Source: a virus
Lineage: Duplodnaviria > Heunggongvirae > Uroviricota > Caudoviricetes
IMG/VR virus record: IMGVR_UViG_2531839662_000020
Strand: one strand, 5' to 3'
DNA length: 12,646 nucleotides
In this document: positions 1-12,646 of the stretch, one piece after another
How positions within the stretch are numbered: the stretch's first letter is position 1
Layout: every line of letters begins with the position of its first letter
Notes under the pieces: generated by a model
Seen by the model: only the letters and a program-made list of their open reading frames with translations
Databases searched by the model: none
What the model was told of the DNA's origin: nothing
Translations under genes and position numbers: made by a program

Positions 1-474
1 AGTTTGCTCCTGCCATAACGTGAAGAAGCAATGACCTGGTGGTCCGTGACTTCCCTACGCTGGCATTATCCAGATCAGGTGATACGGGTATTTCTTACTG
101 ATTTTTGTTATCAGTTGATAATTAATAAGTTTTTCAGCAAACAAGAATTAAAAACTTCAAAACTGACCACACAACTGACCACACATTTTGTTGAAGCTCT
201 ACGAACAAAGACGAACAATAACAAACAAAAGGGAAATTTGCTGGCAGTTTTGCTTAACCGTTATCATTTTTCGGCTATCCGTTATCAAGCTGGTGGATGA
301 TCACGGATAACCCGTTATGGGAATCCCCATATCGGCATCATGCCCACCAGCATGAAGTATTTTTCGCGGATGTAAAAATTTGACGGGGCGGGCGGTCCCA
401 TAAGCAATGGGGGGGTAGGGATTCCGCTCCCCCCCCCTCCCGAATGCAATTTTTCTTATATATATACAAAACAG

Positions 475-1481: not shown

Positions 1482-3143
1482 TTATACCCCATCAAACGCC
1501 GCAAGCCGCTCTTTGTGGCTGTCGCTCATATCGAATGCAAATTCCTCATGTTCTGCCTGGAATGTGCCAAACGCCATCAGCGCCGCAACGCTCGGGTCTA
1601 TCTTGTTGGATGATTTTTTCTTGTTCGGCTTGATATTGGCGTTCGCGTCACTCTGCATCACAACATTACTCATTGACCAGGCCAGCACCGGATCGCCACG
1701 ATGCACAATCACCTTCCGGTTAACAAAAACTTCGAACGATTTCGCCGCCGGACTGAAACGAAGGTATGTTTGCGGGAACGGCTCCACCTCAAATCCTGCC
1801 CCCTGTAGCTGCGTCCTCAGGTGCGTGGCGTTCCATGTATCGAAGCCCACCAGCCTGATATTGAAATTCTCTGCATCCGCCATGATGTCATCACGGATAC
1901 GGTCATAATCAATGCAGTCACCCGGTGTTGTGCGTATCCAGCCCGCCTTTACCCACTGGCGATAGATGGCGCGGTTTTTATTGGCGGGGTTCTGTAGCTG
2001 AAACTCCGGCAGATAGTGACGGGAAACCAGCATAATCTTTTTACCGACCGGAAAGGCATAGCACACGCTGGAAATATCGCTGGTTGATGATAAGTCCAGC
2101 CCCGCGTAGCACTCCTGCCCGTATAAATCCGCCTCCGCGAACGTTCCGGCGCACTCCGCCCATGCACCGTTACCCATCCACGGCGTGGCCCCCTGACACC
2201 AGATATTGAATCGCTTAGTGAGCATTTCCACCCACTGCGACGGAATACCCCGCGCTTTCTGGATGGTTGAGGCCAGTTTTTCACGATCGACGGAAACATC
2301 GATATTGGGATTCGCCTTTATCCACATCGCCGGATCGTCAACCTCGCTTTCATCATCCAGCTCGTAAATCAGCACGAACATGGATTCGTTCACCTCTTCA
2401 CCATCCAGTATCTGGCAGCAATAGTCGTAGTGTTGTTTACAGGCTGAAACAACGTTGCTCCCCGATGTGGTGATGGCAAATAATAACCCCTCCGGACGCG
2501 CCCCCATTCCCAGTTCAAGCGCGGAATAAACCCCGTTGTCAGGGTGCAGGTGATATTCATCCACAATGGCAAGACTCGGGTTTGTACCTTCAATGGTTGC
2601 CGCTTTTGCTGCCAGTGGCTTTAACAGGCTGTTGGTTTTCGGGTGTATCACCTTGTGTGCCTGAATATTTACCCGCTTTCGCAACGGTCGGGATAAAAGG
2701 CACATCTGACGCGCATCATCAAACACGATCCGCGCCTGATCACGACTCACGGCGGCGGTGTAAATATCCTGCTGCCCGTTTTCCATAACCAGAAACCAGT
2801 TAGCCAGGATAGCGGCGACCGTGGATTTGGCATTTTTTCGCGGCACTTCAATGAATGCGCTGGTGTATTTGCGCCGTCCGGTGGCCTTAACCTTAAAGCC
2901 CAGGATGCACGCAAAGGCGAACTGCTGCCACGGCTCCAGCTCAATGGGGCTACCGCGCATTGCGCCTTTTACGTGCGGACACACCCTGGAAAAGGCAATA
3001 AACCGCTCCACGACCTCCGGATCGAACGTGTAAAGGGGGTTTTCAAGGTCAGAAAAATACCGTTTAACGGCCTGTTTCAGTCGTTTACAGGCCGTAATTT
3101 TGCCGTTTTTTACGCCTTCTGCGTACTCATGCCAGGCGGTCAA
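1482..3143 (-). CDS. terL: Terminase large subunit (Terminase_1-like)
   Basis: 553-aa ORF with LEPWQ...F motif and P-loop-like VPRKNAKST near the N-terminus, then a nuclease-type C-terminal half. Apparent TTG start preceded by GAGGA. Overlaps the small terminase by 17 nt. Confidence 0.88.
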   Translation of the reverse strand: MTAWHEYAEGVKNGKITACKRLKQAVKRYFSDLENPLYTFDPEVVERFIAFSRVCPHVKGAMRGSPIELEPWQQFAFACILGFKVKATGRRKYTSAFIEVPRKNAKSTVAAILANWFLVMENGQQDIYTAAVSRDQARIVFDDARQMCLLSRPLRKRVNIQAHKVIHPKTNSLLKPLAAKAATIEGTNPSLAIVDEYHLHPDNGVYSALELGMGARPEGLLFAITTSGSNVVSACKQHYDYCCQILDGEEVNESMFVLIYELDDESEVDDPAMWIKANPNIDVSVDREKLASTIQKARGIPSQWVEMLTKRFNIWCQGATPWMGNGAWAECAGTFAEADLYGQECYAGLDLSSTSDISSVCYAFPVGKKIMLVSRHYLPEFQLQNPANKNRAIYRQWVKAGWIRTTPGDCIDYDRIRDDIMADAENFNIRLVGFDTWNATHLRTQLQGAGFEVEPFPQTYLRFSPAAKSFEVFVNRKVIVHRGDPVLAWSMSNVVMQSDANANIKPNKKKSSNKIDPSVAALMAFGTFQAEHEEFAFDMSDSHKERLAAFDGV

Positions 3144-3483
3144 GCTCGTCCTCTTCCTCTGTTTCCGGTGGATTTCTGCGGCGACTTACCGGGTCAAAAC
3201 CCAGCAAAGAAGCCATTTTGATCATTATTCTTTCCGCGTCAGCCTTTGCGCTCAGGGCGGGGTTTCTGCTCTCGCTGCCCTGACTGTTAACAATGCTGAA
3301 CCCGCGCGTGGCAAGGTCTTCGACGGCTTTGCGGTATATGGAGTAGTTAACGCAATATAGCTCCAGATTGCTCCAGTCGGCGGGGGTAAGGTCTTCCCGT
3401 CCGGAAAGCTGGCGCGATTTTTCCTTCCACTGCCTGACCGCGATTTCATCCAGGTAAGCGGGGGCTTTTGGTGGTCTTGCCAT
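3127..3483 (-). CDS. terS: Terminase small subunit, P27 family-like
   Basis: N-terminus MARPPKAPAYLDEIAVRQW is typical of P27-type small terminases and the length is about 118 aa. The longer track ORF (to 3624) is rejected as an N-terminal extension. Sits immediately upstream of terL. Confidence 0.75.
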   Translation of the reverse strand: MARPPKAPAYLDEIAVRQWKEKSRQLSGREDLTPADWSNLELYCVNYSIYRKAVEDLATRGFSIVNSQGSESRNPALSAKADAERIMIKMASLLGFDPVSRRRNPPETEEEDELDRLA

Positions 3484-3771
3484 GTTCTCTTTTCGCCCAA
3501 TTATTTTCAAAAAAAATCCCGTGCACAAAAATTTGAGGAGGCGGTCGGTGTCCGGCAGGGACGGTTTTGTCCTGAAAACCTCCCCCACCCCCTCTGACGG
3601 CCTCACCAGCGATTGCGAAAACATTCCATGACCTCGCGGTCACGGTCGGTTAATTGCTTCGCTGTGGTGCGTTCTGTGCGCCCTGTCCTGTTGGCTTTGT
3701 GCCCTGTCTCCTGTGTCTTCCATAAGTCACGCTGCCTTATCAGTCCACGTATCAGCCTGTTTTGCTCCTGT
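3484..3771. other. Candidate cos / terminase recognition region (HNH-TerS intergenic)
   Basis: 288-bp non-coding gap between the HNH gene and terS, the position cos occupies in HK97-like phages. Contains two 15-bp direct repeats (3676-3690 and 3698-3714), a C-rich tract at 3578-3600 and an A-tract at 3509-3530. Cut site not determinable from sequence. Confidence 0.3.
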
Positions 3772-4212
3772 TCAGTCATCATCGCCATACATCCAGTCGT
3801 TACGGTGTGCCGCCCGTTCTTCCTGCTCGCGATACATGCCCGCCTTACGGTTCGCTTTCGTGGCTGGATCTTCCCGTGTCGTCTTACGGTTGTGGCACGT
3901 CTGGCACAATGCCTGGTGATTCCACTCAGGCCAGAAGAGAACATCACCGCCGCCATTGATGGGAATGATGTGATCCACCACAAGAGCTGGCGTATAAATC
4001 CCCTTAGCCAGACAACGCACGCATAACGGGTTTTTGCTCAGGTACAGGGCGCGGTATTTGTCCCACTGTCGGGAATACCCGCGCGCGCGGCGGTGTCCCC
4101 GTCTGGCATCCTCTGCACGCCATGCAGCCCGCCTGTGCTCTTCACACTTTCCGGACTTCACGCGCTTATTACAGCCCGGCTCAGTGCAGCGCCTTAATGG
4201 TTGCCACGGCAT
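3772..4212 (-). CDS. HNH endonuclease (packaging-associated)
   Basis: 146 aa with CxxC...VDHIIP...N.Q.LC..CHNRKT HNH/zinc-finger motif. Start overlaps the connector stop (TGATG). Located just upstream of terS as in HK97-like packaging modules. Confidence 0.85.
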   Translation of the reverse strand: MPWQPLRRCTEPGCNKRVKSGKCEEHRRAAWRAEDARRGHRRARGYSRQWDKYRALYLSKNPLCVRCLAKGIYTPALVVDHIIPINGGGDVLFWPEWNHQALCQTCHNRKTTREDPATKANRKAGMYREQEERAAHRNDWMYGDDD

Positions 4213-4510
4213 CAGTACACCCCCACATCACGATAAACCGACCAGAGCGCAGAAATAGCCATAGGCAGTTCAGACTGCTCCACAGGTGAAACCGCTTCCC
4301 TGTTCTCGTACAGGAAAGCGATGTACATCAGGCAACCAACACGTATTGCCGGGGTAAATTCCAGCCCGTCTTCAAAACGTTTCCCGATATGCTTCTGGCA
4401 GGCTTCCAGCGCCGCATCGGTATACATTTTCAGAAGTTCGCCTTCTCCGGAAAAGTCATCAAGGCGAAGATGTGCCCTGACTTCATCAGGTGTAATTTTG
4501 TCTTCACTCA
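4212..4510 (-). CDS. Head-tail connector protein, gp6-like
   Basis: About 99 aa from MSEDKITPDEVRAHLRLDD, which resembles gp6-type connector N-termini. Overlaps the portal 3' end by 7 nt. The 128-aa track ORF is trimmed to this ATG. Confidence 0.65.
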
Positions 4511-5718
4511 TCTTTTTCACCTTTAATTTCCACAGTCTGCTTCCATGCCTGGCTGAACTCGTCGCCACCTTCACGCGGCGGCATTCCCTCACGCTCACGG
4601 GCTTCGTTCGGATTCATGATCCCGTTCTTAATCCCTTTCTCATACGTGGCGTAACGTTCAGTAGGTGTGGCGCGCAGTAAATCGGCTGAATCAAACTCAA
4701 CCAGATAACGGGTACCAGGTACGGGAGAAGCCACCAGCAAAGCGGCCTTGATTTGCTGTTCGAAGTTCGCCAGCCACGGACGCATTGTCATAGTCAGAAA
4801 CGCGCGGCTTGCCTCACTGAAATTGCTGTAGGTGCTGTTGCTGTATTCCTGCAGAAAAATCGGCGACACGTTGAACATCCGGGCGATGTCTTCAATGGAG
4901 AAGCGACGGGAGGCCAGCCATTCCGCATCCTGGTTACTCATCCCCAGTTGCTTGTAATCCATGCCCCCTTCAAGGATTGGCGTTTTTCCGGCATTTTTCG
5001 CCCCCTTGTAGCGTTCCAGTGCGTCTAATGCCTGTTTACCTTTCACGCCGTCCAGCCATTCGCCTGACGTGATAATCCCTGCCGCCATCATGCCATCTTT
5101 CATAATGCTGGCTCCGTGACGCTGTTGAGCAAGGCCAAGCCCCAGCGCCTCACGGCAAATCGTGATGGGGGAGCGTCCCAGAAAGCCATCATCCGAGGCA
5201 TAGCGGAGATGCAGAACTTCTTCCTGTAAATACGTGCGCACCGTTCCTGTACAGGGTTCGGTGATGGTATAGCGGTATTTGTGTGCGCCTGTGCGTTCCG
5301 GTACAACACACCCCGGCGCATAAGGATGAAGTGATTTTGGCTGACCGTCCCGCCCCCATTCAATAACCGCATAGGCGTTACCGTTCAGCAGGCAGTGACG
5401 CATCATTGTGCGTTTAAACTGGTAAGGTGTCTGGCACGAATTAGGCTGCTCATTCAGCAGAATATCTACCGGATGACTGTCCAGCCATTCCCGCGCCTCC
5501 CTGCCCTTGTCATTACGTACCAGATACAGATAACACGGCATCGTGGCCACCGCCTCAGCGATGACGGAAACCGCGTTCATCACTGCGGGCAATGATTCAG
5601 CCGTCCCGGCAGAAACATATTCTCCGGATCCGGTATTCGGTACGCCGGACAGCACCAGAAAATCATCAATGGACAGGTTACGTTGCTCGCTTTTTTTACG
5701 ACTAAAAGGCCACCACAT
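4504..5718 (-). CDS. Portal protein, HK97 family-like
   Basis: About 404 aa when started at the ATG at 5718 (MWWPFSRKK...), 1 nt after the protease stop. Size and position between protease and connector fit a portal. The upstream 73 codons of the track ORF overlap the protease gene and are rejected. Confidence 0.8.
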   Translation of the reverse strand: MWWPFSRKKSEQRNLSIDDFLVLSGVPNTGSGEYVSAGTAESLPAVMNAVSVIAEAVATMPCYLYLVRNDKGREAREWLDSHPVDILLNEQPNSCQTPYQFKRTMMRHCLLNGNAYAVIEWGRDGQPKSLHPYAPGCVVPERTGAHKYRYTITEPCTGTVRTYLQEEVLHLRYASDDGFLGRSPITICREALGLGLAQQRHGASIMKDGMMAAGIITSGEWLDGVKGKQALDALERYKGAKNAGKTPILEGGMDYKQLGMSNQDAEWLASRRFSIEDIARMFNVSPIFLQEYSNSTYSNFSEASRAFLTMTMRPWLANFEQQIKAALLVASPVPGTRYLVEFDSADLLRATPTERYATYEKGIKNGIMNPNEAREREGMPPREGGDEFSQAWKQTVEIKGEKDE

Positions 5719-5719
5719 A

Positions 5720-6280
5720 TCACAACCCCGCCAGCTCTGCCCAGCGATGACGATTATTTCCTGCCGGGCGTAATTCAGGGTGCTGTGCAAACAACGAACG
5801 GTGGGCAATCTCCACGCCAGATTCGGGATAAGCAGGCATCGACGTGATCGTGATTTCCCTGAGTTCTGCAGCGGTAACAGTACGCAGATACGGTTTTTGC
5901 GCGATATTCCACTCTTCGCATAATGCGCGAAAGCCAAAGCTCATCCCTGTAATGTCGCCACGCTCCACCAGCGTAAGCACATCTTTTCCAAGCTGGGTAT
6001 CAGGCGGTGTCAGTTCAAAACGTAGCCCGGTGTTGTCCTCAGTCAGTACCAGAGTGCCGGATTTGGTGCGCCCCAGCAGTTGGGTATAGTCATGCTCATA
6101 CAGGCAGCGCACATCATTACCCGCCGCCAGATAGTCAGCAAAAGCCCCCGGCGTGAACTGTTCGCGGAATTCGTCCCAGATAATTTCTGAAAGGCTGTTC
6201 CAGCGAACGGCATACCCCACCAGCTTTTTATTGCTGGCGGTCAGTTCAGATGTGCGGATTTCAAAATCGGTGTTTTTCAT
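5720..6280 (-). CDS. Prohead protease, HK97 family (S78-like)
   Basis: 186 aa with GGAG RBS 8 nt upstream of ATG. Sits between capsid and portal. Family recognised by eye from overall sequence and size. Confidence 0.8.
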   Translation of the reverse strand: MKNTDFEIRTSELTASNKKLVGYAVRWNSLSEIIWDEFREQFTPGAFADYLAAGNDVRCLYEHDYTQLLGRTKSGTLVLTEDNTGLRFELTPPDTQLGKDVLTLVERGDITGMSFGFRALCEEWNIAQKPYLRTVTAAELREITITSMPAYPESGVEIAHRSLFAQHPELRPAGNNRHRWAELAGL

Positions 6281-6296
6281 CGGTGTACTCCATAAA

Positions 6297-6322
6297 GCTG
6301 AAAAAGGAGGCCGCAGCCTCCT
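6297..6322 (-). terminator. Intrinsic terminator-like hairpin between capsid and protease genes (possible attenuator)
   Basis: On the minus-strand transcript: 7-bp GC-rich stem AGGAGGC / GCCUCCU (6305-6311 with 6316-6322), 4-nt loop, followed by UUUUU (6300-6304). Lies directly after the capsid stop at 6335. Confidence 0.4.
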
Positions 6323-6334
6323 CCTTACTCATGA

Positions 6335-7504
6335 CTAGCCAGCTTTCATTTCCAGAATTTTGATGGCGTTTGAATCCACCACACCACCGCCCAGATATTT
6401 ATCCGTGTGGACCTTGTAGAATCCGGGTTCAGTAATGTTGTCCGGTCGGGTGCGAATCCCTGTTACATGATCAACGATGAAATAACCACGACTGAAATCG
6501 CCAACCGCTAGCGGTGCTTTTCCTGCGCCGATGTCCGGCATGGACTCCAGGCAGAAAACAGGACGACCAAGCAACATATCCGGCGCACCTTCTTTAAGGC
6601 TGTCGCGCCAGATATAATCGCCATTCTCATTTTTCAGCTTCTGTAGTGTCCCTGCCGTGCCCGAGTTCATCACCCAGACGGCATTTTTGCGGTATTTCGC
6701 TTTCAGCTTGTAGAGAATGTCGATCAGTTCGTCCGCTGTAATGGCGGTTCCACTTGCCGCTACCACTTTTTCAATGGTGCCAAAAGCGCGGGTTTTGTCA
6801 CTGGTCGCCGCACGGGTGTAAGCCATGAAGCCTTTCGGCTTGCCGTTACCGTCGCCATTAACAAAATCATCCTCTTCGGTGCTGGCGAACGTGTCGGCAA
6901 TTTCGGAGGATAACCAGCCCAAAATATCCACCTCTGAAAAATCCAGGATTTCCTGCGTGGTTTTCGGGTAGGCGTAGATCTGATTCAGCTTGATGGTTAC
7001 ACGTTCAATTTTCGGGGTGTTGGTTTCACTACGTGCGCTGCCTTCTGTGCCTCGTCCTACAGTTGCGCCGCCAGTGGAAACCAGTTTCTGAAACTCATTT
7101 GATTTTGCGGTCTTCACGGTCGCGATCACGCGCATAACACTGTCATCCTGTAGCTGGCGCATGACTTCGCGATCAAGCTCAGGAATTACGGTATATCCGC
7201 CATCCCTGCCGCTGTCAGTGCTGGTGGACAGTGATCGCACATCTCCGGTTACGATGTAGTTACGCAATTCATCAGATGATAATTTCTGGATGCCCGTTCC
7301 TGGCTTGCTGCGTTCTTCATCAGCCACAGACTCGAGGCGGTAAATTTCTGTGTCGAGGGAATCGGCTTTTGCACGCAGTTCATCAAACTGTTTGCCCTCG
7401 TCATCGTTCAGGCTGCGGTTTTCACTGTCGGCTTTTTCCAGCAGGGATCGCATCTGGTTTTTCAGGGCGGTTTTTTGCTGGCGGAGTTCGATTAATTTCT
7501 TCAT
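6335..7504 (-). CDS. Major capsid protein, HK97 fold, with N-terminal delta/scaffold domain
   Basis: 389 aa. N-terminal about 100 aa is charged and coiled-coil-like (delta domain), followed by an HK97-like MCP body. First gene after the candidate late promoter. Confidence 0.85.
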   Translation of the reverse strand: MKKLIELRQQKTALKNQMRSLLEKADSENRSLNDDEGKQFDELRAKADSLDTEIYRLESVADEERSKPGTGIQKLSSDELRNYIVTGDVRSLSTSTDSGRDGGYTVIPELDREVMRQLQDDSVMRVIATVKTAKSNEFQKLVSTGGATVGRGTEGSARSETNTPKIERVTIKLNQIYAYPKTTQEILDFSEVDILGWLSSEIADTFASTEEDDFVNGDGNGKPKGFMAYTRAATSDKTRAFGTIEKVVAASGTAITADELIDILYKLKAKYRKNAVWVMNSGTAGTLQKLKNENGDYIWRDSLKEGAPDMLLGRPVFCLESMPDIGAGKAPLAVGDFSRGYFIVDHVTGIRTRPDNITEPGFYKVHTDKYLGGGVVDSNAIKILEMKAG

Positions 7505-7653
7505 GAAGGTTTTCTCGTATTGGTTAAGATTCAGGACGTGAAACCAACACGGAGGGAGCGCCGCCCGACACTCTCGGCATCTCGCAGATCAACCCGGCAT
7601 CGCGCAGGGGGTCAGGCGGCATTGTGGCGGCTCACGTCTGAGTGCCACACGCC

Positions 7654-7726
7654 AACATATACATAAAAATCAGTATGTAAACATCAGCCAGAATCACCGA
7701 ACAACCTGGAACAACCACGAACAAAT
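7654..7726 (-). promoter_or_regulatory. Candidate activator-dependent late promoter for the capsid operon
   Basis: On the minus strand: -35 TTTACA (7676-7681), 16-bp spacer, -10 TATGTT (7654-7659). Upstream are three direct repeats GGTTGTTC / GGTTGTTC / ATTTGTTC with 10-bp phasing (plus-strand GAACAACC at 7699-7706 and 7709-7716, GAACAAAT at 7719-7726). Confidence 0.35.
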
Positions 7727-7741
7727 AATTTACAAAACCTG

Positions 7742-7770
7742 AAAAAAAGACCTGGAGAAAATCCAGGCCT
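7742..7770 (-). terminator. Rho-independent terminator ending the early/replication operon
   Basis: On the minus-strand transcript: stem 7762-7770 pairs with 7748-7756 (9 bp, one mismatch), loop 7757-7761, then a U7 run (plus-strand A7 at 7742-7748). Lies 9 nt after the stop of the 82-aa gene. Confidence 0.65.
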
Positions 7771-7778
7771 TTATCGCT

Positions 7779-8027
7779 TTATTGTTTCACTGGATCCCGC
7801 ATTCTGCGTCTTATTTTCCACAGATATTCGATCATCGCTTCCACCTGCTCACGATTGGTTGCGAAAATTTCCCCGGTCAGTGAGCTGCGCAGAAAATCAT
7901 GATGATCCACAACAAACAACGCATCGGAAGAAAGCAGACGGCGATATTTTTTTGCTGTCGTGGTTTCCAGATCATCAAAACCATGAAACTTTTTATGTTG
8001 CTGGACTTCTTCAAATGTCACTGGCAT
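7779..8027 (-). CDS. Hypothetical protein, 82 aa, translationally coupled to the ProQ/FinO gene
   Basis: ATG start at 8027 overlaps the upstream gene's 3' end by 10 nt. No family recognised. Followed by the terminator. Confidence 0.5.
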   Translation of the reverse strand: MPVTFEEVQQHKKFHGFDDLETTTAKKYRRLLSSDALFVVDHHDFLRSSLTGEIFATNREQVEAMIEYLWKIRRRMRDPVKQ

Positions 8028-8560
8028 GTATCCCCCTTTGCTGCCCGGCGCTGGCGCTTGTGCTTCTCATTCAGCGCCATCAGCCGCGTTTCTGCCTCCT
8101 GCTGTTCCTGTGGTGTCACTTCCCCACATGGCTGGCCTTTCAGGTCGTATCGTACCCCACCAGCAACCAGGGCGCGGTAATAGCGCGGAGACTGCGCATA
8201 AGATGCCAGCGTCGCACGTAATGCCCCCGGCCCGAATGCCAGCCCCCTGACGGCGAGATCCTGCATCAGGTCGTCGAATATCCCCACCTTAAGCGGCTTC
8301 GGTGCTTCCCTGTTGAATAAGTCAGGCCACATCTCAGTGAGGCGGTTAACGCGCCTGCGGTTTTTGCGCTGGCGTTTGGTCATATGCCGCCACGGTGTCA
8401 CCCCTGTGGGCTGCCCTTTGCGGCTCTGCTGTGCGTTCTGATTGCCGGGTATCACTTTATGCGCCGATGTGGTTTTATCCCGCTCTTGCGCCGCCTGCGT
8501 CGTTTTCTGCGGCGTGCCGTAAATGCCTTTCGGTTTTCGGTTAATGGTCAGCTTTGTCAT
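8018..8560 (-). CDS. ProQ/FinO-domain RNA-binding protein with basic N-terminal extension
   Basis: C-terminal two-thirds (WPDLFNREAPKPLKVGIFDDL...LRATLASYAQSPRYYRALVAGGVRYDLKGQPCGEVTPQEQQEA) matches the ProQ/FinO N-terminal domain pattern recalled from E. coli ProQ. N-terminal about 70 aa is Lys/Arg/Gln-rich. AGGGGAAGG RBS. Confidence 0.75.
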   Translation of the reverse strand: MTKLTINRKPKGIYGTPQKTTQAAQERDKTTSAHKVIPGNQNAQQSRKGQPTGVTPWRHMTKRQRKNRRRVNRLTEMWPDLFNREAPKPLKVGIFDDLMQDLAVRGLAFGPGALRATLASYAQSPRYYRALVAGGVRYDLKGQPCGEVTPQEQQEAETRLMALNEKHKRQRRAAKGDTCQ

Positions 8561-8596
8561 GCCTTCCCCTGTAATTACTCTGTTCGCTGTTGTGAA

Positions 8597-9022
8597 TTAA
8601 AACGGTATGTTATCCCCGTACAGGTCATCGTGCTGGCCTGTCTGTTGTTTTGCCCTGTTCAGTGCGTCAGTGGCCTGCCCCTGTTGGCCTTTTTTGCCGC
8701 CCGGTCGCGCCGTTCTCGCACTGATTACGCTGTCTGCGATGACCTGCCAGCCCTGCCGCGTTTCGCCGTTCTGCCCTGTCCACTGGCTTACCTGCATGTT
8801 ACCCGCCACGTTCACCAGTTCGCCTTTGCGGTGTTTTGCCAGTGCGTCGGCCTGTCTGCCAAACGCCAGGACGGATAACCACATCGTCGCCGTTCCGTCA
8901 TCTGCCTGGCTGCATGGCAGGGGAACCGCCATACTCGCCATCGCCATTTGTGTTCCCTTGCTGGTGGTCTTTAACTGCGGGTCAGCCACCAGCCGCCCGT
9001 AAGCCGCTATCTGTGCTGTCAT
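8597..9022 (-). CDS. ssb: Single-stranded DNA-binding protein (SSB)
   Basis: 141 aa. OB-fold-like N-terminal region (GRLVADPQLK...), Gly/Gln-rich linker, and acidic C-terminal tail DDLYGDNIPF resembling the SSB DDDIPF tip. Confidence 0.8.
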   Translation of the reverse strand: MTAQIAAYGRLVADPQLKTTSKGTQMAMASMAVPLPCSQADDGTATMWLSVLAFGRQADALAKHRKGELVNVAGNMQVSQWTGQNGETRQGWQVIADSVISARTARPGGKKGQQGQATDALNRAKQQTGQHDDLYGDNIPF

Positions 9023-9085
9023 GCTGTCTGCTCTCCGGTTTTAACGTTGATGGTTACGCTTGTTTACACCCTTACGGTGAAATTC

Positions 9086-9219
9086 TGCGGGTTATAATCG
9101 CACTTTTGCGGGTTATAACTGCCGTTTTGCGGGTTACGTGCGGGTTATTGATTTCCTTTTTATTCATACAGTTAATGCACTTATATACATGATAACCCGC
9201 ATAACCCGCATAACCCGCA
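9086..9219. repeat. Iteron cluster A: 4 direct TGCGGGTTA(T/C) repeats (spacing 21/21/11 bp), AT-rich spacer, 3 tandem inverted ATAACCCGC
   Basis: Direct copies at 9086-9095, 9107-9116, 9128-9137 and 9139-9148. AT-rich stretch 9149-9191. Inverted tandem copies across 9192-9219. Lies in the 220-bp gap between the primase-helicase stop and ssb start. Confidence 0.75.
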
Positions 9220-9241
9220 ACTTTTCACCTCACACAGGGGG

Positions 9242-11365
9242 TTAATCTTCTGCCTCAGGCTGGAACATCAGCACGTAAAAAACATGCTGCTTCCCCCCAA
9301 TTTTGCCGAGCGCCTTTTTCTTGTAACGGCGATCGTTACCCGCTTCCAGCATTCCGGCAGCACTCAACGCGCGGGCAAAGTGAGACGGATTAAATCCCTG
9401 TGCTATCTCACCCTCAAATACATGCGGGAACGTGTAAAAACGGAACTCGTCATCTTCGTTTCTGATACTCCCCTTTCTGTATCCGGCAAGTTCTTTAATC
9501 GGTAAATCACGCTCGTCGGTATTGGGCCACGGAAGGTATCTGCTGAATCCGAACGACGCTAAAAAAGCTTCTGCCTGTTCAACCATCTGTTTAAATTCCC
9601 TGTTACCCGTGCCGAACTCCTTCACCCAGGCATTAAAATTATGCTGTATGGCATCGCGGCATTCCTGCTCATCCCAGCCAGTAACATGACCTGAAAGCAC
9701 AAGCGCGGCCTCCAGTATGGCAAATCGCTCCCCCACACGGTGAACCTGTTCGCCGTAGCTCTCCGGTATCAGGTTGCGCCACCGCTCACGGCATGTCCTT
9801 ACCGTGTCCTTTGCCTCCTGCTGGTGTTCTGCCAGCCATTTAACCCACTCACGACCCGCCGCCCCGTGATTTTCTGTCCAGGCATCCTTTAACGCGTCTG
9901 CGTGCGCCTTTCCGGTGCTGTATTCGTGAAATTGCGTGGCTTTTTCCATCGGAACGTTAAGCAGGCGGACAAGCTGCCCCGCTTTGACTTTTATCCCCTC
10001 CGTTTTGAGGAATGTCTCAACGTCCATTTCTCCGGTGCTGATTGCCACCGTGCGCCAGTGTTTGATCTCCCTGTTGCCGCCGTCCTTCGCCCCCTGTAAT
10101 TTCCCCGAACCGTTAAACAGCGTATAGGCTGACGTGGACACCTCCCGCGCGTTTCCGGCCTGGCCTATTTCATCCAGGGGTAAAAGCCCGTCATTGTGTG
10201 CCTCTGCTTCGTTGGCGATACCTAACGCTGTGCCGTACCAGGTCAGCCGCTGCGCGTCCGGCTCTCCCCATAAACTTGATGCGATGTTCTGTGTGGTGGT
10301 TTTCCCTGCCGATGACTGTTCGAAAAGATGTACCCCGAAGCCGTCAGCGCCCACCAGCCCGATTAATGGTGCGGATAACGATACCGCCACACCCAGCATC
10401 ATGGACGGATTACCACCAGCCAGCCGCGCAACGATATCGCGCCAGCCCTCCGCCGTTCCTGCCACGGAATAGCCATTAACAGCAGCCGTTTTTCCGGTAA
10501 ACAGGACTGGCTTTTCGCAATCACCAATGACCGAACCGTCCGGCATGATGTACGCGCCAAAATGCCAGCCCGTTGTTGTGCTTAACTGCCATTCCTCATG
10601 GCTTCCGCTTAACTGCATCCAGTCAGCCAGGATAGCCCTGTATTTACCGTTGGTTGTTACGTTCAGTCCGTGGTCTTTCAGCAACCGCCAGCCGTCACGG
10701 TCGCCAATGCCACCGCACGGAACCGCCATTGTGATGACTTCATGGTTTGCTAATTTTTTCCAGCGCATCACGCGGTAATGCTCTTTACCGATTGTCCCCG
10801 TTCCCAGTAGTTCAAGCGGGGAACATAACCACGTCTCAGGCCGGATAATTTCGCCTGACTGCTTATCCACTTTTGGCGTTACCCAGAAAACACCATCGGC
10901 GCGACTTTCAACGCGGGGCTTTAATTCATCATCGCCCTGGATTTCTGTGATTTTTTTCTTTAAGGGCAACACCAGACTTTCCCCGCGCTCGTATTCGTCT
11001 TTGAGGCGAGGCAACTGGTCGGATAAATCCGCCGGGCTGATGTCAGTTATCCCCGCGTATTCGTATACGGTCTTCACGCCAGCCACAGCCAGCAACGTGA
11101 CGATCTGTGTAAGGCTACGTTCAGTGATGTGCCCTGCGCGGTAAACACGCACACACTGACGGCTATCATCAATAATTTGATAACCGGTAATATCTTTCAG
11201 GTGTTCATCTGACAGAACGACAGGCGGCACATTGTCGGCGGCAATATGCTTACCTGCCCATTCCTGCCACTCTTTCGCATGGCTCCACGCATCACTACCC
11301 GCAAAGATGATAACCTCCGTCATTTTGTCGGCTGGCTGGTGCTTTAAGTTTGGTGCGCGCTTCAT
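9242..11365 (-). CDS. Replicative primase-helicase (toprim-like N-terminus, P-loop NTPase core; DUF927-like)
   Basis: 707 aa. Walker A-like SSAGKTTT in the central region. Overall resemblance to satellite and prophage primase/helicase replication proteins. ATGA overlap with the upstream small gene. Followed by iterons. Confidence 0.8.
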   Translation of the reverse strand: MKRAPNLKHQPADKMTEVIIFAGSDAWSHAKEWQEWAGKHIAADNVPPVVLSDEHLKDITGYQIIDDSRQCVRVYRAGHITERSLTQIVTLLAVAGVKTVYEYAGITDISPADLSDQLPRLKDEYERGESLVLPLKKKITEIQGDDELKPRVESRADGVFWVTPKVDKQSGEIIRPETWLCSPLELLGTGTIGKEHYRVMRWKKLANHEVITMAVPCGGIGDRDGWRLLKDHGLNVTTNGKYRAILADWMQLSGSHEEWQLSTTTGWHFGAYIMPDGSVIGDCEKPVLFTGKTAAVNGYSVAGTAEGWRDIVARLAGGNPSMMLGVAVSLSAPLIGLVGADGFGVHLFEQSSAGKTTTQNIASSLWGEPDAQRLTWYGTALGIANEAEAHNDGLLPLDEIGQAGNAREVSTSAYTLFNGSGKLQGAKDGGNREIKHWRTVAISTGEMDVETFLKTEGIKVKAGQLVRLLNVPMEKATQFHEYSTGKAHADALKDAWTENHGAAGREWVKWLAEHQQEAKDTVRTCRERWRNLIPESYGEQVHRVGERFAILEAALVLSGHVTGWDEQECRDAIQHNFNAWVKEFGTGNREFKQMVEQAEAFLASFGFSRYLPWPNTDERDLPIKELAGYRKGSIRNEDDEFRFYTFPHVFEGEIAQGFNPSHFARALSAAGMLEAGNDRRYKKKALGKIGGKQHVFYVLMFQPEAED

Positions 11366-11676
11366 TTTGCCTTTCCCCGTTCACGAATAATTTCACGTAC
11401 TGCCTTAATGCGTTCCATTCCTGTAACGCGCATGATTCTGTCGATGTCGCTTAATTCTGCTGGTGGTGCTTTACTTACCAAGGTGAACTCCCTGTCAAAG
11501 CGCATATGTGACGACACGCAGGGATGCGCATAACCTTCGCGGATATAGGTCACACGAAAATCATCGACGGTTTTGATCGTTATCGTGCTGCCGTATTTAT
11601 CCTGGAAAATATCGCCGGGGCGGATTTCAGGCCGAGCGGGGCCGCTGGCAGTAAAGCCAGAATTTTTCTTTTTCAT
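11362..11676 (-). CDS. Hypothetical protein, 104 aa
   Basis: ATG with GGAG upstream. Stop overlaps the primase-helicase start (ATGA). Basic C-terminus. No family confidently recognised. Confidence 0.55.
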   Translation of the reverse strand: MKKKNSGFTASGPARPEIRPGDIFQDKYGSTITIKTVDDFRVTYIREGYAHPCVSSHMRFDREFTLVSKAPPAELSDIDRIMRVTGMERIKAVREIIRERGKAK

Positions 11677-11681
11677 GTTTT

Positions 11682-11900
11682 TTACTCCAGAGGCAGCTTT
11701 TTAGCGGCGAGCTCAATATCAGATGTCAGAGAAACCTGTGTATTTGCCAGGTCTAACAACAAAGAAATAAGAATTTCTTCTCTGCTATCGGATTTATCGG
11801 TGCTAAGGCTGTTCATCCACATATTGACGACTTCCCTGATTTTTTTCGCAGAGTGCAGGGCTTCAAATGCCAGGTCTTCAATATCATGTTTATTTCGCAT
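11682..11900 (-). CDS. Hypothetical protein, about 72 aa (start uncertain: 11900, 11915 or 11930)
   Basis: Track ORF 11682-11930 has a TTG start. The in-frame ATG at 11900 is preceded by a G-rich SD-like run. Overlaps the 3' end of the upstream gene. Predicted helical. Confidence 0.45.
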   Translation of the reverse strand: MRNKHDIEDLAFEALHSAKKIREVVNMWMNSLSTDKSDSREEILISLLLDLANTQVSLTSDIELAAKKLPLE

Positions 11901-12252
11901 AATCGCCCCCGCCATTTTCACAATCAGCAATCAGGATGGCTTTTGCCTCATTCAGCGCCATATCAGCACTAAATTGCATAACAGCCAGTGAGTGAGGAAC
12001 GAAAGCCCCGGCATATTCTGTTTCGCTGGTGGCCTCAATGGTAATCACACGCGGTTGTGCCGTGCTCAGGGCGATAAAACGCCAGATGTATTTATTCAGG
12101 TTGTGCAAGTCCCGCCCTTGCGGGTGTGTGGTATGATTTAACATAGCTACCTCGATAATCTTGCTATCGTTGGTGGTTAGAAGCCCGGTTAGTGTTAGCG
12201 CACTGCCGGGTTTCGTCGTTTGTATTTCAATAAAACCATTGGTGTGTTTCAT
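11890..12252 (-). CDS. Hypothetical protein, 120 aa, first gene of the early operon (alternative start at 12144 gives 84 aa)
   Basis: 3' portion of the 247-aa track ORF. The part upstream of 12252 is antisense to the plus-strand gene and low-complexity, so is rejected. ATG at 12252 lacks an SD; the ATG at 12144 has GAGGT 5 nt upstream. Confidence 0.45.
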   Translation of the reverse strand: MKHTNGFIEIQTTKPGSALTLTGLLTTNDSKIIEVAMLNHTTHPQGRDLHNLNKYIWRFIALSTAQPRVITIEATSETEYAGAFVPHSLAVMQFSADMALNEAKAILIADCENGGGDYAK

Positions 12253-12340
12253 GTTATTTTGGAGTGAAACACACGTCAAGCCTTTTTTGTATTTCTTTTT
12301 TGTGTATACTGAAACACACCAAATTTGAGGAGTTTCAGTT
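12241..12340. promoter_or_regulatory. Divergent control region with three copies of TGAAACACAC(C/G)
   Basis: Copies at 12241-12251 (inverted, overlapping the ATG at 12252), 12264-12274 and 12310-12320. The first two form an 11-bp-arm inverted repeat with a 13-bp spacer. Plus-strand -10-like TATACT at 12305-12310 and GAGGAG RBS at 12326-12331. Confidence 0.5.
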
Positions 12341-12646
12341 ATGGCGACTACCAACAAAAACGCTAAATCACAATTGACCACCGTCAGAGTCCCCCACGAT
12401 GTTATGGAGGGCATGGAATCCGTAAAACTGGACGGCGAAAGCAACGCCGGATTCATAGTAACCGCCATGCGCGGTGAGATCGCCCGCCGCCAGGCAGAAG
12501 GAAGCGGAGAAAATCCCCTGGTTTCTTCGCTCGATGCACTGGCGCAGGTGGAAAAAATTGGAGTCAAGGCTGCCGAGGAGATCGGGCAACTCGTCGCCGT
12601 CGCGCGTGAAGAACTCCAGCGCCGCAAGGCCAAAGAATCAGAATAA
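12341..12646 (+). CDS. Putative small DNA-binding regulator (possible ribbon-helix-helix fold)
   Basis: 101 aa. Strong GAGGAG RBS 9 nt upstream of ATG. Only plus-strand gene, divergent from the early operon. N-terminal LTTVRVPHDVMEGMESV fits a beta-strand-then-helix RHH pattern; fold assignment is tentative. Confidence 0.6.
   Translation: MATTNKNAKSQLTTVRVPHDVMEGMESVKLDGESNAGFIVTAMRGEIARRQAEGSGENPLVSSLDALAQVEKIGVKAAEEIGQLVAVAREELQRRKAKESE

Follow-up and report, generated by a model that had tools for sequence, protein, structure and literature searches.

A FinO-family gene in a capsid-forming phage satellite of Escherichia coli and a candidate antisense RNA at the head of its operon

To our knowledge, plasmids are the only mobile elements from which FinO-family proteins (FinO, FopA, and PcnR) are known; there, they limit how much the element costs and how far it spreads. 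The regulation of phage-inducible chromosomal islands (PICIs) is currently described via proteins (AlpA, repressors, and helper-encoded inducers). In this work, we have analyzed a 12,646-nt stretch of Caudoviricetes DNA (IMG/VR record IMGVR_UViG_2531839662_000020; hereafter, the window), which is, by its gene set, a capsid-forming PICI (cf-PICI) adjoining thiM in Escherichia coli, and which carries a finO-like gene near the end of its early operon. The three characterized FinO-family proteins of mobile elements, FinO, FopA, and PcnR, all repress their own element via its own RNA (PMC9977716). FopA (with Inc-repZ, on IncI1 plasmids) and PcnR (on IncI2 plasmids) repress replication of their element via RNA at the leader of a replication gene (PMC9977716). 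In FinO, which works in the FinO/FinP-traJ system, RNA duplexing and strand exchange depend on the disordered N-terminus and on the first part of the helix, and the core alone only binds (PMC3105414). The ligands of E. coli ProQ are enriched in cis-antisense RNAs (PMC5391140). We compare the locus with these systems, describe a candidate antisense RNA at the head of the same operon, and weigh what the protein may bind.

The preliminary description of this DNA, made from sequence, had placed a ProQ/FinO-domain RNA chaperone at 8018-8560 and proposed a profile search as the check; coordinates, strand, and domain all turn out to be right. The open reading frame (ORF) runs from ATG to TGA over exactly these positions on the minus strand, encodes 180 aa, and is preceded by the Shine-Dalgarno (SD) sequence GGGGAAGG at 8562-8569 (minus strand, read from sequence). 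Pfam PF04352 (ProQ/FinO) matches residues 68-172 at an E-value of 9.2e-25; the match takes in positions 5-108 of the 109 in the profile, and its 87.2 bits exceed the cut-off of 27. A sequence search of the PDB returns ProQ's N-terminal domain (NTD; 5nb9, E 6e-12) and FinO (1dvo, E 3e-11), as well as RocC, Legionella ProQ, and NMB1681. An AlphaFold2 model built with 19 homologues has pLDDT above 87 over residues 61-170, and a Foldseek search with this model gave 26 significant PDB matches, all of them FinO, RocC, NMB1681, or Legionella (Lpp) ProQ, with no other fold matched below E 2; the best match is FinO 1dvo (E 1.3e-6, rmsd 2.0 Å over 102 columns). With a dN/dS of 0.27 across 51 distinct alleles, the finO-like gene is a real gene under purifying selection and no chance ORF. 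Its product is identical to RefSeq WP_000164226.1, where it is already named 'ProQ/FINO family protein'. By its domain and predicted fold, the gene encodes a genuine FinO-family RNA-binding protein of a phage satellite.

The protein falls outside both named subfamilies: NCBIfam FinO (NF010317) gives 64.7 bits against a cut-off of 136 and NCBIfam ProQ (NF003434) 58.6 bits against 127, in both cases over the core only, and identity to FinO over the core is ~30-35%. In its architecture, as read from sequence and model, it is FinO-type and not ProQ-like, while not being a member of FinO proper. Codons 1-15 (8516-8560, minus strand) encode an N-terminal motif, MTKLTINRKPKGIYG, on which constraint is stronger than anywhere else in the protein (dN/dS 0.10, at a normal dS of 0.37); among the 19 homologues, M1, I6, and R8 are invariant, and T5 and K9 nearly so. 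Codons 16-55 (8396-8515, minus strand) form a Q/T/K-rich linker of variable length and sequence that is predicted to be disordered, and codons 56-77 (8330-8395, minus strand) form a strongly basic helix, WRHMTKRQRKNRRRVNRLTEMW, leading into the domain, with 9 K+R in 22 residues and a pI of 12. In the AlphaFold2 model, helices span residues 56-59 and 62-77, and pLDDT is below 50 at residues 1-3, 11-15, and 17-55, so that residues 1-55, which have a net charge of ~+8, are predicted to be mostly disordered. The basic N-terminal extension had been described earlier as foreign to the canonical domain; it does lie outside the Pfam domain, but it is not an oddity, since it resembles the N-terminus of plasmid FinO. 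Three plasmid FinO proteins share with it the N-terminal motifs xLT[IL]xRK and TTxAxKV, followed by a basic helix, and FinO has a comparable extended N-terminal helix (PMC3105414). The finO-like protein thus has the FinO trait of a disordered basic N-terminus with an extended pre-core helix, and it resembles FinO in its shared motifs, its FinO core, its length of ~180 aa, and its best structural match, 1dvo.

E. coli ProQ resembles the finO-like protein chiefly in the domain itself, being the best sequence match through its FinO-domain NTD (E 1e-18, family profile). Unlike ProQ, the finO-like protein has neither a linker nor a C-terminal Tudor-like domain, as it stops 8 residues past the end of the Pfam match (172 of 180), and it has, in the 67 residues ahead of the domain, a long basic N-terminal extension, of which ProQ has none. 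RocC of Legionella, which shares the fold (TM 0.8, normalized to target), differs from the finO-like protein in being chromosomal, in its long C-terminal extension, and in working with a trans-encoded small RNA (sRNA), RocR. The ProQ/FinO domain (codons 68-172, 8045-8359, minus strand, Pfam envelope) contains G93, R115, Y127, and R137; among the 19 homologues, G93, Y127, and R137 are invariant and R115 is nearly so. In the alignment with RocC, G52, Y87, and R97 correspond to G93, Y127, and R137, and R75 of helix 5 corresponds to R115. All four RocC residues have contact roles, and G52, Y87, and R97 hold the 3'-terminal nucleotide of the terminator in the RocC-RocR structure (PMC9674577). By this alignment, the pocket for the 3'-OH end of a terminator hairpin is intact in the satellite protein, as it is in ProQ.

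The earlier suggestion of RNA-based control now has a concrete candidate, which we call as-icd: a cis-antisense RNA with covariation that lies across the leader of the operon to which the finO-like gene belongs. This candidate RNA of ~80 nt lies on the plus strand at 12145-12228 and consists of two hairpins, SL1 (12 bp with a 7-nt loop) and SL2 (a 13-bp GC-rich terminator hairpin followed by a U-rich tail). A predicted extended -10 promoter, TGgTATGAT (12129-12137, plus strand), sets the +1 at ~12144-12145, and the variants TATGAT, TATAAT, and TATTAT all retain a -10 while altering the overlapping codon on the other strand. The 5' end of as-icd abuts the ATG (12144) of the Icd-like gene that heads the early operon, and the RNA covers, in full complementarity, the SD GAGG and ~80 nt of the 5' untranslated region (UTR), whose length of ~100 nt is predicted from the promoter at 12251-12279. 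Its minimum free energy is -35.4 kcal/mol (z -5.6); the complementary strand reaches just -20.4 because several G-U pairs form on the plus strand only.

Conservation argues for the RNA as a folded entity. Across 27 distinct copies, 98.8% of cells are paired, four SL2 pairs have compensatory changes, and 25 double changes are seen against 7.9 ± 2.1 in shuffles, with slid controls pairing in at most 53% of cells. A covariance model gives 73 matches (the window and 72 loci), and in FinO-oriented loci the match is always on the strand opposite the FinO gene. In an alignment of 45 distinct sequences fitted to this model, which favors pairing, compensatory changes occur in both helices (6 pairs) and pairing is 99.1%. 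The SL1 loop is hypervariable between perfectly conserved flanking stems, and by analogy with FinP, we infer that a loop-loop contact of SL1 may set allele specificity. The as-icd region matches 1284 of 5426 complete E. coli genomes (~24%), including the model islands EcCICFT073 and O157 PICI. It has no counterpart above threshold in Rfam and none annotated in phage records; as far as these libraries show, as-icd is undescribed in the literature searched, and beyond that literature it may have been described under another name.

How as-icd stands among known antisense RNAs can be put in three comparisons. The first is FinP: in both systems, a cis-antisense RNA of two hairpins (~80 nt for the candidate) lies over the ribosome-binding site and 5' UTR of the first regulatory gene, with loops that vary by allele. 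FinP differs in having a purine-purine mismatch where the 3'-tail nucleotides of as-icd pair with the 5' flank (PMC12001967), and as-icd would be an analogous but unrelated antisense RNA, its partnership with the finO-like protein being a candidate one. The second is the SymR/SymE type I toxin-antitoxin system. The sole Rfam signal in the island is a full-length alignment to SymR (RF01809) at 12145-12217 on the plus strand, and as-icd shares with SymR its two hairpins and a 5' end abutting the opposed start codon; the opposed gene, a homologue of a cell-division inhibitor, is potentially toxic. At 33.6 bits, the match stays below the gathering score of 61, so that as-icd is not a member of SymR, and its target protein is unrelated to SymE. 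The third comparison is with the immunity RNAs of P1 (c4-icd-ant) and P4 (CI), covered by the Rfam families C4 and isrK, which likewise place RNA control over an icd-like gene heading an operon. C4 and CI are processed from the operon's own strand, whereas as-icd comes from the opposite strand, and the window has no Rfam match to C4 or isrK. One FinO-bearing island, L049, has Rfam matches to isrK (80 bits) and C4 antisense RNA (76 bits) at 6185-6370 (plus strand), right after the Icd-like start and on the operon strand; as it has as-icd on the other strand too, two RNA control layers meet at one leader. In several FinO islands (L002 at 963-1030, L029, L031, and L049), the Rfam int-alpA RNA (RF02996) lies between int and alpA, and it was considered as a universal partner of the protein and rejected, being present in only some FinO islands and not in those of the type found in E. 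coli UMNF18, which is described below.

Our preferred reading, which we offer tentatively and rate somewhat short of an even chance, is a FinOP-like feedback loop acting on as-icd, with as-icd as the main ligand of the finO-like protein. The protein would bind SL2 and the 3' tail of as-icd and shield the RNA from decay, and its N-terminal region would speed the pairing of as-icd with the leader mRNA. Pairing would block translation of the Icd-like gene and would probably lower the expression of the replication genes downstream. Since the operon that would be repressed has the chaperone gene at its distal end, repression would close a negative feedback loop, and this loop would keep the island in a quiet state or return it there, as is the case for finO at the end of the F tra operon. 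In the ~80% of related islands that do not have the gene, host ProQ could serve as-icd.

Several observations are consistent with such a loop. All FinO-bearing islands with enough upstream flank have as-icd. SL2 has G-C pairs at its base, and nucleotides of the 3' tail pair with an A-rich 5' flank; a GC-based hairpin with a tail paired to an A-rich 5' flank is the pattern of ProQ-class ligands (PMC12001967), so that the candidate has ProQ-type terminator geometry. The enrichment of cis-antisense RNAs among ProQ ligands and the habit of the three plasmid proteins, noted above, point the same way, as does the position of the gene at the distal end of the operon.

A number of points weigh against the loop. 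The antisense RNA is family-wide, and the islands that have it without the finO-like gene are four times as numerous as those with the gene; EcCICFT073 and O157 PICI have as-icd and no finO-like gene, and the as-icd of CFT073 is identical to that of a FinO-bearing cf-PICI. That FinO and as-icd occur together is mostly due to their sharing an island family. Islands with and without FinO have SL2 and tail types in common, which is weak evidence either way because FinO does not read stem sequence (PMC3105414). A PerC-family accessory regulator is the usual companion of the gene, and this would equally fit a host-directed role. Within the protein, the N-cap motif of helix 5 is altered: S70, K71, S72, and K73 of RocC are replaced by G110, P111, G112, and A113, and G110 is invariant across the subfamily, making the N-cap substitution subfamily-wide. 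In FinO domains, the N-cap Ser and the flanking Lys/Thr bind three consecutive stem phosphates (RocC S70-K73; PMC9674577), although an N-cap Gly may still cap the helix, the contacts being partly main-chain. The change of N-cap Ser to Gly also sets the protein apart from FinO, as does its residence in a chromosomal phage satellite and not in a conjugative plasmid. Separately, co-adaptation of RNA and protein was considered and gave no signal, FinO frequency being 19% vs 22% in the two SL1 families.

The distribution of the finO-like gene bears on what else the protein might bind. Of 5426 complete E. coli genomes, 1168 (~22%) have a blastn match, and all 1649 E. coli matches are on chromosomes and not in the tra operon of F-like plasmids, where FinO proper is placed. 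The alleles form 243 clusters (56-93% identity); Escherichia accounts for nearly all of them, Shigella, Salmonella, and Citrobacter contribute a few, and species-representative genomes contain just 3 loci. We sampled gene-centered neighborhoods at 80 IMG/VR loci: wherever the upstream flank suffices, the gene is downstream of DUF4222 and a replicase, ssb is present in about half of the loci, and a capsid module in about a quarter. In the window, the early operon reads Icd-like, DUF4222, DUF927, ori, ssb, finO-like, orf82b, with the finO-like gene last but one. Because islands sampled via the antisense RNA contain it in 15/81 and 17/76 distinct islands, the finO-like gene is a single-gene cassette that is optional; it occupies the 3' end of the early operon in ~20% of related islands. 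Its placement inside the replication operon by the preliminary description is correct insofar as the gene follows ssb in the early operon, but it is no fixed part of that operon.

Two side observations concern the FinO genes of other islands. In a distant relative, L087 (~6545-7700), two FinO-domain genes stand in tandem, the second (152 aa) starting 15 nt past the first. The sister island L002-L005 is very common, with its FinO allele P0050 found in 4005 blocks of the collection; at ~9560-16360, three large genes (837-843, 600-686, and 824-918 aa) replace the capsid genes. These have no Pfam and no PADLOC match and may be an undescribed cargo or defense system.

Upstream of the cassette, the replicase varies freely. 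An identical finO-like allele is found behind a RepA-family helicase instead of DUF927, and the DUF927 alleles beside the gene range from 42 to 100% identity. These facts count against a PcnR-like direct repression, in which the protein would set copy number by acting, with no antisense RNA, on a stem-loop in the replicase leader or at the origin. PcnR acts in this way on IncI2 plasmids (PMC9977716), and the finO-like gene, itself in a replication operon, lies next to ssb and the origin, whose iterons are at 9086-9219. That the RNA target is specific to the replicase is nevertheless unlikely because the FinO allele accompanies unrelated replicases, varied DUF927 alleles, and loci with or without ssb; dS, too, is not depressed in or near the gene. 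We regard direct repression of the replicase as very improbable. FopA and PcnR further differ from the satellite protein by low sequence identity and in their targets, the candidate target here being the Icd-like first gene and not the replicase.

Downstream of the cassette, the gene belongs to one of three unrelated classes (orf82b, a PerC-family gene with a Pfam E-value of 4e-36, or a 138-aa protein), all of which overlap the finO-like stop. Since one and the same FinO allele is found beside different replicases and with different genes after it, the target is unlikely to be tied to any of these; a target in the late leader is unlikely as well, since the late leader recombines freely with the FinO gene. 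A cis element traveling with the finO-like gene was considered and rejected: inter-island homology ends inside the 3' end of the gene, the late leader tracks orf82b and not FinO, and there are three classes of downstream gene. We found no conserved RNA overlapping or adjacent to the finO-like gene, dS being undepressed along it and near it. Plus-strand terminator-like matches antisense to ssb/finO (8340-8688) were also rejected, the window total being 21 vs 15.9 ± 4.6 in shuffled sequence, and they coincide with Lys/Gln-rich codons.

The PerC-family genes lend weight to a different role, that of a trans-acting accessory regulator binding host or helper-phage RNAs, such as sRNA terminators or mRNA 3' ends. 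Alongside PerC, such a protein would either reprogram the host, act as a competitor of chromosomal ProQ, or disturb antisense control in phages. A PerC-family gene is present in 28/32 islands with FinO vs 19/125 without (Fisher odds ratio 39, uncorrected for island relatedness), and the finO-like and PerC genes are frequently a translationally coupled pair with an ATGA overlap (islands L094-L329). The PerC-like genes of PICIs are regarded as accessory virulence regulators, one of which represses LEE, the enterocyte-effacement locus (PMC11773190). A host-directed role would also suit an optional cassette occupying the slot between the replication genes and the cargo/packaging module, the region before the packaging module being treated as variable in the cf-PICI literature, and it would suit the many alleles found within one species. 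The core domain scores slightly higher against the ProQ NTD than against FinO, and FopA and FinO occasionally bind chromosomal RNAs (PMC9977716). Against this, the known FinO-family proteins of mobile elements are highly specific for the RNAs of their own element (PMC9977716), the window island has no PerC gene by Pfam, there is no match to a PADLOC defense model, and no candidate trans target was identified. On balance, we judge a trans-acting role rather unlikely; it and the other readings are not mutually exclusive with the feedback loop. The idea that orf82b might be a divergent PerC was rejected, as no similarity was found, and that of the finO-like protein or its neighbors as a defense system was rejected in the absence of PADLOC matches.

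Beyond the cassette, the early operon closes with a predicted intrinsic terminator, AAAGGCCUGGA-UUUUC-UCCAGGUCUUU followed by a U-run (7742-7772, minus strand), which folds at -15.9 kcal/mol (z -3.3) and is a second candidate ligand. If the protein acted on this hairpin in cis, it would shield the 3' end of the early mRNA from 3' exonucleases or polyadenylation, and the outcome would be positive autoregulation of the replication genes after induction. The terminator lies 7 nt past the orf82b stop, its A-rich 5' flank pairs with the first U residues, and it has a 7-U tail, a geometry described for ProQ ligands (PMC12001967); ProQ protects mRNA 3' ends (PMC12086684). Such terminators are generic, however, the downstream gene and hence the operon end vary among FinO-bearing islands, and islands without the finO-like gene manage without it. 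We consider protection of this 3' end improbable. For the feedback loop on as-icd, which we continue to prefer, the relevant terminator would be SL2, at the other end of the operon.

The element itself can be placed by comparison with E. coli UMNF18, which is 99.9% identical to the window over the two stretches compared (1-1480 and 7500-9300), apart from a 553-nt insertion present in UMNF18 only. The UMNF18 island lies between thiM and rcnR, and its integrase is ~3 kb past the right end of the window. By Pfam and RefSeq, 1482-7504 is a capsid module, and neither the window nor the UMNF18 island has annotated tail or lysis genes. An integrase with divergent regulators, an own replicase and origin, and a specific att site are all present (the UMNF18 integrase, the thiM-rcnR site, DUF927, and the iterons), so the satellite-like element seen in the preliminary description can be specified as a cf-PICI by its gene set and the UMNF18 comparison. 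At the left end of the window, a TPP riboswitch match (35-126, minus strand; 31.7 bits, under the gathering score of 54.3) is the thiM leader of the chromosomal thiMD operon; the window therefore begins in the chromosome, and the left end of the island lies between ~130 and 1190. The near-identical islands L001 (EC416) and L211 (2014C-3075) split the terminase large-subunit gene of a resident prophage, and an island inside a prophage terminase gene matches the published 'helper-embedded PICI' configuration (PMC10111431).

The window is laid out as one long minus-strand array, with a divergent YlcI/YnfO-family gene (12341-12646, plus strand, by annotation) at its right end. The early promoter is sigma-70-like (TTGACG-17-TAACAT, 12251-12279, minus strand), and its -35 is conserved between islands. 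Operator-like inverted repeats bracket it at 12242-12251, 12265-12274, and 12310-12322, with the operator sequence co-varying between islands: GTGTGTTTCA and TGAAACACAC (region 12239-12322) flank the -10 of the promoter, and a third copy precedes the YlcI/YnfO-family gene. Half-site sequence varies from island to island within a constant layout, which suggests repressor-operator specificity types.

The first gene of the early operon, Icd-like and 84 aa long (11890-12144, minus strand), starts at ATG 12144-12142 with the SD GAGG at 12153-12150. Its N-terminal 41 aa are homologous to Icd-like proteins, and its RefSeq homologues are named 'host cell division inhibitor Icd-like protein'. The gene is an in-frame fusion, with ~41 Icd-like N-terminal residues and ~48 C-terminal residues that match the next small gene of the EC416 island; that near-identical island has ~175 nt more at this site. 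The RefSeq coding sequence of the first gene in UMNF18 starts further upstream, so that it runs across the antisense RNA region; this start is probably miscalled. An 82-aa ORF (11682-11930, minus strand), the DUF4222 gene (11362-11676, minus strand), and the DUF927 helicase-primase (9242-11365, minus strand) follow. Between the DUF927 gene and ssb (8597-9022, minus strand) lies a predicted iteron origin (9086-9219), in which four direct TGCGGGTTAT repeats at 9086-9148 (spacing 21, 21, 11) are separated by an AT-rich spacer from three tandem copies in inverse orientation, ATAACCCGCA, at 9192-9219.

Past the finO-like gene comes orf82b (7779-8027, minus strand), which encodes 82 aa (PHROG 1957, function unknown). 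As its ATG overlaps the finO-like stop by 10 nt, it is likely translationally coupled to the finO-like gene; the overlap arrangement is the same in all cf-PICI-type FinO loci, and orf82b is also found in islands without FinO. A promoter and leader region of 230 nt on the minus strand, upstream of the capsid gene, separates the early operon from the capsid operon, which runs from 7504 downwards. The finO-like gene had earlier been placed between ssb and the late operon; it is, but orf82b, the terminator, and this 230-nt leader intervene before the late genes. The region upstream of the capsid gene (7505-7740, minus strand) contains a promoter-like TTTACA-16-TATGTT (7681..7654), and its leader is GC-rich and structured (-54.7 kcal/mol, z -2.5). 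In UMNF18 and one IMG/VR contig (L212, 10784-11290), an extra 507-nt plus-strand gene of unknown function is inserted before the capsid gene; it is not in the window.

Two papers from 2026 mention a ProQ/FinO-like gene in PICI or satellite maps without studying it (PMC13612085; PMC13230959), and homologues on phages and islands receive only generic mention in a review of the family. No functional study of the finO-like gene was found in the literature searched, and the cf-PICI literature within it makes no mention of the gene. The finO-like gene is an uncharacterized member of the FinO-family regulators of mobile elements, in a new class of host element. The domain call alone would be ordinary; the FinO-type architecture, the position at the operon end, the covarying antisense RNA at the operon head, and the prevalence in E. 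coli together make a concrete hypothesis. In a wider and more doubtful reading, which we advance as a rather unlikely generalization, E. coli satellites would carry a FinOP-like 'fertility inhibition' circuit, in which an allele-specific as-icd, its kissing loop hypervariable, guards the Icd-like leader and a chaperone closes the feedback loop that sets how readily and for how long the satellite replicates, with other islands borrowing host ProQ.

A finO-like match is present in about a fifth of complete E. coli genomes, in satellites that move virulence and defense genes, and in about a quarter of E. coli genomes, as-icd adds a candidate RNA layer where the early operon begins. Should host RNAs, and not as-icd, be what the chaperone acts on, satellites would be vectors of post-transcriptional reprogramming beside PerC-like transcription factors. 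If the FinOP-like circuit is true, no RNA-chaperone-dependent control would have been described for PICIs before it, and the logic of FinO, FopA, and PcnR would reach beyond plasmids to phage satellites.

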